Shown piece after piece: positions 21,043 to 24,122 of a DNA stretch of 64,000 nucleotides; the stretch's first letter is position 1; the number at the start of each line of letters is the position of its first letter. The position numbers were made by a program, and so were the translations under genes. The DNA lies in assembly GCF_000027125.1 (NCBI RefSeq), contig NC_017626.1; one strand, given 5' to 3'. This stretch comes from Escherichia coli 042 (lineage in GTDB: Bacteria; Pseudomonadota; Gammaproteobacteria; Enterobacterales; Enterobacteriaceae). The notes under the pieces were generated by a model, which searched no databases, was not told where the DNA came from, and worked only from the letters and a program-made list of their open reading frames with translations.

Positions 21043-21774
21043 TTACTGTGGGAACCACTGGTCATTGATTTTCTGATACGTGCCGTCAGCTTTAATTGCT
21101 GCCAGTGCGTTATTGAGTTTTTCCAGCAAGGCTTTGTTATCCGGGCGTACAGCGATGCCCAGACCGGTGCCGAAGTATTGCGGATCGGTCACTTTTTCAG
21201 TAGCAACGCCCAGTTGCGGATTGGTTTTCAGCCATTCGTTTACCACCGCTGTGTCACCAAACACGCCATCAATACGGCCATTTTTCAGATCGATAAAGGC
21301 ATTCTGATAACTGTCATAGGAGACAGTTTTCACTTCGGGGTGCTGATCTTGAATATATTTCTGGTGCGTGGTGCCGTTTTCCATCCCAATACGTTTGCCT
21401 TTCAGGTCGGCAAACGTTTTGTAGGTATCTTTTTTGGCAATCACGACGGCTGAGTTTTCATAGTAGGGCGTGGTAAATGATACCTGTTTGCTACGCTCCG
21501 GCGTGATATCCATTCCGGAGATTACGGCGTCATATTTTCTGAATTTCAGTGACGGGATCAGGCTGTCGAACGCGTGATTAGTAAAAGTACATTCTGCCTG
21601 CATTTGTTTGCACAAGGCTTTTGCCAGGTCGATATCAAAGCCGACAATCTCATTATTAGCACCTATAGATTCAAAGGGTGGATAGGTGGCTGAAACGCCA
21701 AAATTGATTTTCTCTGCGGCAGAAGCACCGAAAGTAAAGGAAGCAAGTAAAGCGGCAAGAACTAACTTTTTCAT
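21043..21774 (-). CDS. artJ: arginine ABC transporter periplasmic binding protein ArtJ
   Basis: Start MKKLVLAALLAS; paralog of artI. Confidence 0.92.
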   Translation of the reverse strand: MKKLVLAALLASFTFGASAAEKINFGVSATYPPFESIGANNEIVGFDIDLAKALCKQMQAECTFTNHAFDSLIPSLKFRKYDAVISGMDITPERSKQVSFTTPYYENSAVVIAKKDTYKTFADLKGKRIGMENGTTHQKYIQDQHPEVKTVSYDSYQNAFIDLKNGRIDGVFGDTAVVNEWLKTNPQLGVATEKVTDPQYFGTGLGIAVRPDNKALLEKLNNALAAIKADGTYQKINDQWFPQ

Positions 21775-21888
21775 GATGGAACTCCCGTCTGTCAATCTTA
21801 TGATTTTTGGCCGTGTCTGCGGCATGGGATAACAATGCCATCAAGTGAATTTATATGCAATAAATATGATTAAATAATTTAAATGAAA

Positions 21889-21922
21889 TAAAAAAATACG
21901 GACAACTTAGTGAGTTGTCCGT
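21889..21922 (-). terminator. terminator of the artPIQM operon
   Basis: Inverted repeat acggacaact/agttgtccgt followed by a T-run on the minus strand. Confidence 0.55.
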
Positions 21923-21948
21923 ATTCATTATAAGAATTTATGCACTAT

Positions 21949-21985
21949 GTAGGCCGGATAAGGCGTCCGCGCCGCATCCGGCATC
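21949..21985. repeat. REP (repetitive extragenic palindrome) element
   Basis: gtaggccggataaggcgtccgcgccgcatccggcatc matches the REP consensus core. Confidence 0.75.
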
Positions 21986-21999
21986 AGCACGCAGCCAAA

Positions 22000-22668
22000 T
22001 TAATTCCTTCGCTCAAACGCCAGTGCTTTGCGCTCGATCAGACGCATCATCAGCGTCAGCAGGCCGTTAACGACCAGATAAATAATCCCTGCCGCGCCGA
22101 ACACCATTACATCGTAGGTGCGTCCGTACAACAACTGGCTGTATCCCATCACTTCCATCAGCGTAATGGTGTAAGCCAGAGAGGTACTTTTGAACACCAG
22201 CACCACTTCGTTGGAATAAGAAGAGAGCGAGCGTTTAAAGGCATACGGCAGCAGGATCGCCAGCGTATCTTTTTTGCTCATTCCCAGGGCGCTACAGGAC
22301 TGCCACTGACCTTCCGGGATCGCACGAATTGCACCGTAAAACAGCTGCGTGGTATACGCCGCACTGTTCAGCGACAACGCAATCAGCGCACACAGCCACG
22401 GTTCTGACAGCAAATGCCACAGTGCCGGATACTCCTGCAACGTCGGGAACTGGCCCGGCCCGTAATAAATCAGGAAGATCTGCACCAGCAGCGGCGTACC
22501 GGTAAACAGCGTGATATAACCCCGCACCAGCCACACCAGCACCGGCGTTTTCAGCGTCAGGATGATGGTAAAAATCAACGCCAGAATCAGTGCCACAATC
22601 AGCGAGGCAACGGTTAGCGTCAGGCTGGTGTGCAGCCCTTTCATCAGTTCGGGTAAATACTCAAACAT
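22000..22668 (-). CDS. artM: arginine ABC transporter permease
   Basis: 222-aa permease ORF. Confidence 0.92.
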   Translation of the reverse strand: MFEYLPELMKGLHTSLTLTVASLIVALILALIFTIILTLKTPVLVWLVRGYITLFTGTPLLVQIFLIYYGPGQFPTLQEYPALWHLLSEPWLCALIALSLNSAAYTTQLFYGAIRAIPEGQWQSCSALGMSKKDTLAILLPYAFKRSLSSYSNEVVLVFKSTSLAYTITLMEVMGYSQLLYGRTYDVMVFGAAGIIYLVVNGLLTLMMRLIERKALAFERRN

Positions 22669-23384
22669 TAGCCAGGCCTCCGCTCAAAACGTGTCGCGCG
22701 CAGGTCAATGCGTTTGAGAATGTACTGACTGAGCAGGGTGATCACCAGGTAAATCGCCGCCGCCACAATGTACCAGGTAAATGGTTCCTGGGTACGGGTA
22801 GCGATGCTTTTGGTTTGTAGCATTAAATCATTCACACTAATCAAACTGACCAGCGCGGTATCTTTCAGCAGCACCAGCCACTGGTTACCGAGACCCGGCA
22901 GCGCATGACGCCACATTTGCGGCATCACCAGACGGAAAAAGATAGCTGATTTCGACAGCCCCAGCGCCTGACCGGATTCCCACTGACCCACCGGTACCGC
23001 TTTTAATGCACCACGCAGCGTTTGCGAGGCATAGGCGGCATACAGCAGTGACAGAGCGATGACACCACAAAGGAACGGGCTAACGTCGAAGTTCTCAATG
23101 TCCATCTGCACCGGGATCTGCACGAACCCAAGATTGATGGTGAAGCCATCCGAAAGCGTCAGCAGCAGCTGCGAGGAGCCAAAATAGATAAACAGCACCA
23201 CCAGAATTTCTGGCAGGCCACGCAGAATGGTTACCAGCGCTGAACCTGCCCACGCGACAGGACGCCATTTTGCCGACTCCCATACCGCAAAGAACATCGC
23301 CAGCGCCAGCCCGACAATCAATGCACAAACGGCAAGGCCGACGGTCATCCCGGCGGCGCTTGCTAAAGGAAAAAATTCATTCAT
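22668..23384 (-). CDS. artQ: arginine ABC transporter permease
   Basis: 238-aa permease ORF. Confidence 0.92.
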
Positions 23385-23390
23385 CAGGAA

Positions 23391-24122
23391 TTACTTCTGG
23401 AACCATTTGTTATAGATGGTTTCGTAAGTGCCATCTTTCTTCACTTTTTCCAGCGCAGTGTTGAGTTTCTGCTGCAATTCAGTGTTGCCCTGGCGTACTG
23501 CGATGCCGAGGCCAGTACCGAAGTAATCTTTATCGGTCACTTTATCGCCCACTGCCGCCAGTTTCGGGTTGTCTTTCAGCCACTCGGTGACCACTGCAGT
23601 GTCACCGAATACGCTGTCGATACGACCGTTTTGCAGATCCAGTTTTGCGTTCTGGTAGCTGTCATACGGAACGGTGGTGATTTCCGGGTGCTTATCCATA
23701 ATGAACTTCTGGTGTGTCGTCCCGTTCTGAACGCCGACTTTTTTGCCTTTCAGCTGATCAACACTGGTGTATTTGCCTTGCTGACCCACAAACAGGGCAG
23801 AGTTGTCATAGTAAGGGGTGGTAAACAGCACCTGCTTTTCACGCTCCGGAGTGATATCCATGCCCGCCATCACTGCTTCTACGCGACGGAATTTCAGGCT
23901 TGGGATCAGGCTGTCAAACGCCTGGTTAGAGAAAGTGCAGGTTGCATCAATCTCTTTACACAATGCCTGCGCCAGGTCGACGTCAAAACCAACGATCTGG
24001 TTGTTTGCATCAATCGATTCAAACGGAGGATAGGAGGCTTCGGTGGCAAAACGAATGGTTTCGGCAGCTGTGGCGGAAAGACTAAAACCTGCAATTAACG
24101 CGGCAATCAGAACTTTTTTCAT
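23391..24122 (-). CDS. artI: arginine ABC transporter periplasmic binding protein ArtI
   Basis: 243-aa ORF with signal peptide. Confidence 0.92.
   Translation of the reverse strand: MKKVLIAALIAGFSLSATAAETIRFATEASYPPFESIDANNQIVGFDVDLAQALCKEIDATCTFSNQAFDSLIPSLKFRRVEAVMAGMDITPEREKQVLFTTPYYDNSALFVGQQGKYTSVDQLKGKKVGVQNGTTHQKFIMDKHPEITTVPYDSYQNAKLDLQNGRIDSVFGDTAVVTEWLKDNPKLAAVGDKVTDKDYFGTGLGIAVRQGNTELQQKLNTALEKVKKDGTYETIYNKWFQK

Follow-up and report, generated by a model that had tools for sequence, protein, structure and literature searches.

The artPIQM-artJ locus of Escherichia coli 042, a canonical enterobacterial arginine importer with two anciently duplicated binding-protein genes

The artPIQM-artJ locus of Escherichia coli was reportedly described by Wissenbach et al. 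in 1993 and 1995, and the Charlier group is said to have worked on the locus and its control by ArgR (Caldara et al. in 2007). A study of the art locus from the same group (Torres Montaguth et al. 2019; PMC6640053) describes artPIQM and artJ as having separate ArgR-repressed promoters, with stronger repression of artJ than of artPIQM. [quoted passage not shown]

In the argT-hisJQMP system of E. coli and Salmonella, two paralogous, differently regulated binding proteins (SBPs), LAO and HisJ, which are 70% identical (PMC6640053), likewise serve one ABC translocator. Both of these SBP genes are located upstream of the permease genes, whereas one SBP gene of the art locus lies inside the operon and the other after it. 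HisJ has its fold and backbone-contact motifs in common with ArtJ (E 3.4e-50). The closest solved structure is that of the arginine-specific STM4351 protein of Salmonella (PDB 2y7i; E 1.1e-93 to ArtJ and 1.6e-81 to ArtI), which is 59% identical to ArtJ and is encoded elsewhere in the genome. Single-SBP operons of Vibrio and of Pasteurellaceae (the latter according to PMC2228313) have the P-SBP-Q-M gene order, with no artJ after artM, and code for an SBP 58% identical to ArtI.

We analysed a 64,000-nucleotide stretch of the E. coli 042 genome (contig NC_017626.1), hereafter called the window, from which STM4351 is absent. The artPIQM-artJ locus found there is the usual E. coli locus for arginine uptake, described long ago, a canonical enterobacterial arginine importer (Table 1). 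It matches that of K-12 in gene order, gene lengths and protein families, and in its predicted organization in two units with putative ArgR operators over the -35 elements, with essentially unchanged proteins and no functional difference. Of 5426 complete E. coli genomes, 5420 carry the locus and none exceeds 98.4% DNA identity over the art stretch. The locus encodes proteins 99-100% identical to their counterparts in E. coli strain N3. It is annotated identically in RefSeq, and artJ also bears that name in NZ_CP031609. Every element flagged at the locus is already annotated or published, and there is nothing new in the observation itself. The 2-kb segments that span the locus (20001-26000) have a GC content of 48-53%, which falls inside the range seen for the rest of the window; a neighbouring island, with 32% GC, is unlike the art locus.

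Table 1. Coordinates of genes and of predicted or candidate control elements at the art locus of the window
Feature	Coordinates	Strand	Description
Terminator-like hairpin 3' of artJ	21014-21037	-	From scan: 10 pairs, loop of 4, T-run
artJ	21043-21774	-	243 aa, periplasmic arginine-binding protein; signal peptide MKKLVLAALLASFTFGASA cut before AEK
artJ Shine-Dalgarno	21782-21786	-	GGGAG, 7 nt before ATG; conserved across genera in alignment
Small hairpin	21810-21823	-	GCCG-CAGACA-CGGC; presumed artJ 5' UTR; partly conserved, absent in Enterobacter L016
Candidate artJ promoter	21832-21860	-	-35 TTGCAT (21855-21860), 17-nt spacer, extended -10 TGG-CATTGT (21832-21840)
ARG box 2 (putative ArgR operator half)	21844-21861	-	ATTGCATATAAATTCACT; 2 mismatches to TNTGAATWWWWATTCANW; highly conserved
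ARG box 1 (putative)	21865-21882	-	TTAAATTATTTAATCATA; 3 bp upstream of box 2; 4 mismatches to consensus by direct reading
Predicted intrinsic terminator of artPIQM transcript	21894-21926	-	14-pair hairpin + T7
REP element	21949-21982	-	artPIQM 3' UTR, between artM stop and terminator; consensus match, hairpin fold
artM	22000-22668	-	222 aa, permease; NCBIfam PRK11122, 423.6 bits
artQ	22668-23384	-	238 aa, permease; NCBIfam PRK11123, 467.9 bits
artI	23391-24122	-	243 aa, second periplasmic binding protein; signal peptide MKKVLIAALIAGFSLSATA cut before AET
artP	24140-24868	-	242 aa, ATPase; NCBIfam PRK11124, 502.7 bits, full length
Candidate artP control region	24912-24941	-	ARG box ATTGCATAATTATTCTGT (24924-24941), -35 TTGCAT (24935-24940), 17-nt spacer, -10 TACTAT (24912-24917)

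The gene set of a PAAT importer, namely an ATPase, two permeases and a family-3 SBP in one cluster, is complete at the locus. The names artJ and artI given in the earlier note are right, as are the equal lengths of the two products and the position of the permease genes between them: each protein passes, over residues 1-243, the NCBIfam equivalog of its own copy only (ArtJ_Ecoli NF041765, 534.5 bits for a cutoff of 510; ArtI_Ecoli NF041764, 536.7 bits for a cutoff of 522), the ArtI model scoring 385.7 bits on ArtJ and the ArtJ model 395.1 bits on ArtI. Both proteins start with typical signal peptides ending in A-x-A and are predicted to be exported to the periplasm, and the relatives of both carry PF00497. 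The longest artJ open reading frame reaches an upstream ATG at 21825; the RefSeq start at 21774 is favoured by the nearby Shine-Dalgarno motif and the full-length NCBIfam match. Gaps of 17 nt separate artP from artI and 6 nt artI from artQ, and the artQ stop codon overlaps the artM start by 1 nt (TAATG); artP, artI, artQ and artM form one tightly packed operon, predicted to end at a conserved intrinsic terminator. The ATPase and the two permeases would assemble into one ABC translocator, ArtQMP2, on which both ArtI and ArtJ may dock according to the literature, where this is only 'supposed'. The gap between artJ and the convergent rlmC gene, 28 bp long, contains a terminator-like hairpin.

The spacer between artM and artJ measures 225 bp (21775-21999). 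It harbours a GC-containing hairpin followed by a T-run, predicted to be the artPIQM terminator: across 14 genera, compensatory changes occur in 7 of the 13 stem pairs, and the T-run does not vary. We defined a REP as an imperfect palindrome of ~35 nt, with GCCGGATGCGGCG...CTTATCCGGCCTAC, in a transcribed intergenic region. The element in the spacer has no mismatch to the consensus, which none of 100 shuffled sequences matched, and the spacer alignment across genera shows it in Escherichia loci only. It overlaps a sub-threshold match to Rfam naRNA4 (34.6 bits for a gathering score of 59.5), which we take to be a REP-derived RNA family; apart from that match, Rfam searches over the locus returned no curated RNA. 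A CRISPR-DR53 match at 25020-25056 (E 0.12) was weak and was taken as a chance hit. The earlier note had assigned to artJ a promoter region of its own, with a REP and a terminator. A promoter, a REP and a terminator can all be recognized in the spacer, but the REP, Escherichia-only and located in the artPIQM 3' UTR, appears to be a later insertion and not a part of the artJ promoter.

Upstream of artJ, TGGCATTGT and the ARG boxes are conserved. [quoted passage not shown] ARG box 1 contains a conserved ATA.TTA.tCA block, and the spacing of the two boxes agrees with that of the canonical operator. A simple promoter scan detected no artJ promoter. For artP, it proposed TTAACT/CATAAT, which we set aside, as conservation and the literature favour TTGCAT-N17-TACTAT; the artP control region is conserved in 55 distinct sequences, its ARG box has 3 mismatches, and its layout agrees with the published one (PMC6640053). 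Over the whole window, 18 ARG-box matches were found for 10.1 expected, a marginal enrichment given that 4 of 100 shuffles reach 18. The putative artJ operator draws its support from its strong conservation and from the K-12 footprints (PMC6640053). The artJ gene would be transcribed on its own, from a sigma-70 promoter whose -35 element is predicted to fall within ARG box 2; because of this overlap, arginine-bound ArgR should be able to repress artJ independently of artPIQM. Terminator covariation, the conserved ARG boxes and promoter, genes inserted between artM and artJ in some genera (see below) and the published ArgR work all argue that artPIQM and artJ are separate transcription units. 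The artM-artJ gap of Brenneria measures 61 bp and neither a terminator nor an ARG box was seen in it, and separate transcription of artJ is therefore not universal.

We compared the locus with its relatives in other genomes. A scan of genome contigs gave the best 80 loci, all from Enterobacterales with no outgroups among the matches listed, and a profile search of a 5.8-billion-protein set likewise listed enterobacterial proteins only. Outgroups were obtained through a 50%-representative search followed by look-ups of cluster names and contigs, which yielded two operons, from Vibrio vulnificus and a TARA marine gammaproteobacterial scaffold, Pasteurellales being left out. The gene order P-I-Q-M-J is kept in ~70 loci from Enterobacteriaceae (Escherichia among them) and from Yersinia, Serratia, Pectobacterium and Brenneria, none of which has adjacent artI and artJ copies. 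In Raoultella planticola and Serratia, unrelated genes have been inserted between artM and artJ; in Yersinia similis, the sequence preceding artJ is unrelated over at least 7 kb. A third artJ-like copy is found at another site in Intestinirhabdus, and lapT of Mannheimia is an ArtJ-like gene at an unrelated site (PMC2228313). Both outgroup operons have the organization artP-SBP-artQ-artM with nothing art-like 3' of artM, and argR lies directly upstream in the TARA scaffold. Because their single SBP gene sits in the artI position, artJ appears to be the added copy, artI holding the ancestral slot.

The phylogeny of ArtI and ArtJ across Enterobacterales, computed as neighbour-joining (NJ) trees with bootstraps in which deep nodes are weakly supported, recovered separate ArtI and ArtJ clades (199/200 and 200/200 bootstraps; 278/300 and 219/300 after addition of more paralogs). 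The ArtJ tree broadly tracks family relationships. The position of the STM4351 branch is unstable: STM4351 joins ArtJ in 73/200 bootstraps of the smaller tree, and the STM4351 group does so in 169/300 of the larger one. The outgroups fall outside ArtI, ArtJ and STM4351 in only 154/300 bootstraps, and given that value a duplication older than Enterobacterales is a further reading.

In the simplest reading, artI and artJ would stem from one duplication, with the extra copy placed or retained downstream of artM, because adjacent copies are absent from the ~70 loci and both outgroup operons have just one SBP gene, at the place of artI. The whole explanation, which combines a canonical importer, one old duplication, artI in the ancestral slot, artJ as the added copy, two transcription units and a later REP, is in our view very probably correct.

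Among the alternatives, a tandem duplication of the whole artPIQM operon, followed by loss of artP', artQ' and artM' that left artI' (artJ) fused to a copied artP promoter and ArgR operator, would account both for the place of the copy after artM and for its ArgR-controlled promoter. The artJ and artP control regions are alike, each having two ARG boxes, a -35 TTGCAT within box 2, GG ahead of the -10 and a 17-nt spacer, and, compared with each other only, they are 47/90 identical in register, in addition to the equal overlap of both -35 elements reported for K-12 (PMC6640053). However, in AT-rich DNA the constraints that ArgR and sigma-70 impose on both regions could generate the same resemblance, and remnants of artP', artQ' or artM' were not found in any spacer aligned; we regard this scenario as unlikely. 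Acquisition of artJ as a xenolog, from a related gammaproteobacterium and inserted beside artM, is more doubtful still. The weakness of the Enterobacterales-only clade of ArtI, ArtJ and STM4351, the ArtJ-like genes at unrelated sites (STM4351, the third Intestinirhabdus copy and lapT) and the tolerance of the artM/artJ junction for foreign DNA would agree with it, but no sampled outgroup joins ArtJ (ArtJ with Vibrio, 0/300), the ArtJ tree follows families, and the GC content of the locus is that of the rest of the window and not that of the island next door. The earlier note took the pair for a tandem artI duplication (artP-artI-artJ-artQ-artM) whose copies were later separated by artQM. Paralogs arise most often by tandem duplication, and the two copies have equal lengths and a gapless alignment; yet the order is always P-I-Q-M-J with adjacent copies in none of the ~70 loci, the two outgroup operons have a lone SBP in the artI slot, and an extra rearrangement sparing the tightly coupled I-Q-M block would be needed, which makes this version improbable.

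The antiquity of the duplication, also claimed in the earlier note, held up, as did its two shared motifs, FESI-x-ANN-x-IVGFD-x-DLA-x-ALCK-xxx-A-x-CTF and VFGDTAVV-x-EWLK-x-NP-x-L, present letter by letter in both translations. Pairwise alignment, in which low identity would speak against paralogy, gave 155/241 identical residues (64%), 80% positives and no gaps; with an E value of 2e-124, chance likeness is ruled out. The genes are 67.6% identical in DNA and 45% at third codon positions, with dS ~2.0 and dN 0.26. These values, the separate clades and the order P-I-Q-M-J in at least three enterobacterial families point to an ancient event, which would predate the split of Enterobacteriaceae, Yersiniaceae and Pectobacteriaceae. 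The identical peptides rest on different codons and therefore reflect purifying selection. Recent gene conversion between artI and artJ, which the eight identical peptide runs of 6-12 residues and the higher identity of the Yersinia pair (74%, against 65% in E. coli) might suggest, is effectively refuted for the window, because of the DNA-level divergence, with a longest identical run of 14 nt and 60-nt sliding identities of 53%-77% without a plateau, and the two clades are cleanly apart.

Eight differences between ArtI and ArtJ are clade-fixed. ArtI carries the outgroup residues E, F and Q at positions 28, 111 and 132, residues also found in the lone SBPs encoded by Vibrio, Coxiella and marine gammaproteobacterial operons, whereas ArtJ has S, V and E there, as in the arginine-specific STM4351. 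Positions 28 and 132 align with D11 and L117 of the HisJ pocket, respectively. In LAO, L117 has been reported to contact the amino acid ligand; the corresponding residue of Tv2483, E128, binds the guanidinium group. ArtJ thus seems to carry derived residues at two positions contacting the ligand side chain, which fits its published high-affinity, arginine-specific role (Kd for arginine 0.4 uM; PMC6640053). The ligand of ArtI is disputed, as the reports conflict: arginine and ornithine are given in PMC6640053, whereas according to PMC2228313 Wissenbach 1995 found ArtI to bind arginine ten times more weakly than ArtJ and no better than other amino acids. We tentatively propose that ArtI keeps the ancestral pocket, that the side-chain-binding carboxylate shifted from position 28 to 132 in ArtJ and the STM4351 group, and that a whole-operon duplication may have supplied artJ with a copied artP promoter, a combination that is possible but less than even in our estimate.

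The art locus by itself matters little, being a textbook case of one ABC translocator with two differently regulated paralogous SBPs. The modest addition made here is the comparative picture, with the age of the duplication, the ancestral slot of artI and the Escherichia-only REP. Three clade-fixed differences polarised by outgroups, two of them at ligand-contact positions, could guide a binding test of the ArtI ligand. If ArtI does retain the ancestral pocket, ArtJ would be a derived arginine specialist.

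The five art genes lie on the minus strand in the order artP (ATPase), artI (binding protein), artQ and artM (permeases) and artJ (second binding protein), with the convergent rlmC on one side and ybjP on the other. All five encoded proteins passed the curated NCBIfam equivalog cutoffs, and the two binding proteins were told apart by their models: the ArtJ model scored 534.5 bits on ArtJ and 395.1 bits on ArtI, below its cutoff, and the ArtI model 536.7 bits on ArtI and 385.7 bits on ArtJ, again below its cutoff. The artP-artI and artI-artQ gaps are 17 and 6 nt, and the artQ stop and artM start codons overlap (TAATG), an arrangement that would fit translational coupling. 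In 5,420 of 5,426 complete E. coli genomes, a match covers 80% or more of a 5.5-kb stretch around the locus, and the RefSeq annotation of the best-matching genome, NZ_CP031609, has the identical five genes in identical order. On every feature testable here, the locus belongs fully to the art system. Wissenbach et al. (1993, 1995) described the gene string and its two operons, Caldara et al. (2007) the ArgR operators, and Torres Montaguth et al. (2019) the interplay of Lrp and ArgR. All features flagged by the earlier note are established knowledge, and its finding is correct, ordinary and already known.

Features of the art locus (window positions, in 5'-3' order of the coding strand)
Feature	Position	Strand	Basis and remarks
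artP	24140-24868	-	ORF, NCBIfam equivalog
artI	23391-24122	-	ORF, NCBIfam equivalog; 243 aa
artQ	22668-23384	-	ORF, NCBIfam equivalog
artM	22000-22668	-	ORF, NCBIfam equivalog
artM-artJ spacer	21775-21999	-	holds the features below, up to artJ
REP element, after artM stop	21949-21982	-	exact consensus match; 0/100 shuffles match; folds as hairpin
Terminator hairpin	21894-21926	-	14 pairs and T7 run
ARG box 1	21865-21882	-	predicted, by direct reading; 3 bp from box 2
ARG box 2	21844-21861	-	predicted, by motif scan
artJ candidate promoter	within 21832-21905	-	-35 TTGCAT inside box 2, 17-nt spacer, TGG-CATTGT
Small hairpin, presumed artJ 5' UTR	21810-21823	-	GCCG-CAGACA-CGGC; sequence reading
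artJ Shine-Dalgarno	before ATG	-	GGGAG; sequence reading
artJ	21043-21774	-	ORF, NCBIfam equivalog; 243 aa

Between positions 20000 and 47000, none of the 5,426 complete genomes is more than 98.4-98.7% identical at the DNA level, and this DNA seems to belong to a lineage with no close relative among the completely assembled E. coli genomes. For the proteins encoded by art, rlmC and ybjP, identity to the comparison strain E. coli N3 is 99-100%. Beside ybjP, a 600-residue ORF (26216-28018, plus strand) lies in an AT-rich island (GC 32% versus ~51% around) that looks like horizontally acquired DNA; its Pfam pentapeptide-repeat match is below threshold (34.9 bits, cutoff 38), and the annotation of E. 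coli N3 lists its counterpart as a pseudogene, a truncated pentapeptide-repeat gene.

The earlier note had described ArtI and ArtJ as strongly similar proteins of 243 residues each, encoded on either side of the permease genes and stemming from an ancient duplication. BLASTP aligned them with 155/241 identities (64%), 80% positives and no gaps (E = 2e-124), far beyond chance, and the two shared motifs quoted in that note occur in both translations. Their genes are 67.6% identical, with 76%, 82% and 45% identity at the first, second and third codon positions; Nei-Gojobori estimates are pS = 0.70, dS ~2.0 (saturated) and dN = 0.26. Identical nucleotide runs are at most 14 long and identity in sliding 60-nt windows ranges from 53% to 77%, which, together with the third-position value, makes recent gene conversion very unlikely. 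The long identical peptides are thus preserved by selection at the protein level. In a locus scan with one genome per species, the best 80 loci were all enterobacterial, and among the loci listed the order artP-artI-artQ-artM-artJ was found in every one whose contig extends far enough, namely in Escherichia, Citrobacter, Klebsiella, Raoultella, Enterobacter, Buttiauxella, Atlantibacter, Franconibacter, Yersinia, Serratia, Pectobacterium and Brenneria. ArtI and ArtJ form separate clades in a neighbour-joining tree (bootstrap 199/200 and 200/200) and in a larger one with further paralogs and outgroups (278/300 and 219/300), indicating that the genes were duplicated before Enterobacteriaceae, Yersiniaceae and Pectobacteriaceae diverged. 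The ancient age claimed for the duplication is thus upheld.

For outgroups, we searched representatives at 50% identity and followed up cluster names and contigs. Vibrio vulnificus has artP, a single binding-protein gene in the artI slot, artQ and artM, followed by an unrelated gene; a TARA marine scaffold is arranged likewise, with argR lying upstream, and Celerinatantimonas has an orphan binding-protein gene adjoining argR. Pasteurellaceae are reported to have artP-artI-artQ-artM, with artJ found in enteric genomes only (PMC2228313). In the tree, the outgroups fall outside enterobacterial ArtI, ArtJ and the third paralogs resembling STM4351 (a Salmonella arginine-binding protein encoded outside the art locus), with a support of only 154/300. 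A comparison of 64 distinct ArtI sequences with 71 distinct ones of ArtJ found eight positions fixed differently. At three of them, 28, 111 and 132, ArtI has E, F and Q, as do Vibrio, the TARA scaffold, Celerinatantimonas and Coxiella. The single gene in the artI slot of outgroups and the outgroup-like residues of ArtI indicate that artI has kept the ancestral position and ancestral-type residues and that artJ is the added, derived copy.

Most matches in the representative search were very long proteins (~600-3000 residues) with two to eight ArtI-like domains (e.g. P0121, P0124 and P0125). Two 496-residue proteins of the aphid endosymbiont Candidatus Regiella insecticola (P0122 and P0307) are apparent ArtI-ArtQ fusions or read-through annotations; residues 1-247 of P0122 are 61% identical to ArtI, and cluster members of equal length are named ArtQ.

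As for the route, a copy of the binding-protein gene may have been placed after artM, the whole operon may have been duplicated with subsequent loss of the other genes, or artJ may have been gained by transfer. The artP control region (24912-24985, minus strand) shares the layout of its artJ counterpart, with an ARG box (predicted ArgR operator half) over the -35 TTGCAT, a 17-nt spacer and a -10 TACTAT, and 47 of 90 positions are identical in register. This likeness could reflect common descent through whole-operon duplication, or convergence under shared ArgR and sigma-70 constraints. The proposal that tandem copies were later parted by artQM is unsupported, because adjacent artI and artJ were found in none of the genomes examined.

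The REP element, predicted terminator and candidate artJ promoter region reported between artM and artJ are all present, except that the REP element lies outside the artJ promoter. It gives a sub-threshold match to Rfam naRNA4, and REP matches (one or two copies) were confined to the window and three further Escherichia loci, which points to an insertion into the artPIQM 3' UTR that is specific to this lineage. The spacer is usually 155-220 bp long across genera. The predicted terminator is conserved by structure, with compensatory changes at 7 of 13 stem pairs and an invariant T-run across 14 genera. The ARG boxes, TTGCAT and TGGCAT(T/G)GT are near-invariant, Pectobacterium included. Across genera, the small hairpin is conserved in part, with changes in its sequence, and it is deleted in Enterobacter wuhouensis (locus L016).

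The artM/artJ junction is an insertion hotspot. A 5.9-kb insert in Raoultella planticola (locus L048, 1070-7000) codes for a GntP permease, PdxA, a protein with SBD_N and NBD_C domains, DeoR and SIS/CBS proteins, an MFS transporter gene lies there in Serratia marcescens (L080, 5270-7000), and Yersinia spacers are 0.5-0.9 kb long. In Yersinia similis (L072, 1-7000), unrelated genes span at least 7 kb, and artPIQM is absent within 7 kb of artJ. Such unrelated DNA in some taxa argues for the independence of artJ. An exception is a Brenneria sp. (L069, 6937-7000), where the gap is only 61 bp and neither a terminator hairpin nor an ARG box is visible in it; artJ and artPIQM may share a transcript in that lineage.

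At positions 28, 111 and 132, ArtJ has S, V and E, common to STM4351 and its relatives. These additional ArtJ-like paralogs, encoded outside the art locus in some enteric genomes, include P0130 (Salmonella), P0287 (Intestinirhabdus alba) and PDB 2y7i. Alignment to HisJ (PDB 1hpb) places ArtJ positions 28 and 132 at D11 and L117, respectively. D11 of LAO/HisJ presumably touches the cationic side chain. L117 of LAO touches the bound amino acid, the equivalent glutamate of Tv2483 forms a bidentate salt bridge to the guanidinium group, and STM4351 is strictly arginine-specific (bioRxiv 10.1101/350942). In ArtJ and STM4351, the carboxylate thus sits at the L117 position and the D11 position is taken by a serine; ArtI and the outgroups have the reverse. 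Literature accounts of the ArtI ligand are in conflict: it binds arginine and ornithine according to PMC6640053, and PMC2228313 interprets the original data to mean that it binds arginine 10x more weakly than ArtJ and no better than other amino acids. For ArtJ, a Kd of 0.4 uM for arginine is cited in PMC6640053, and the carboxylate at the L117 position would fit a high-affinity, arginine-specific role.
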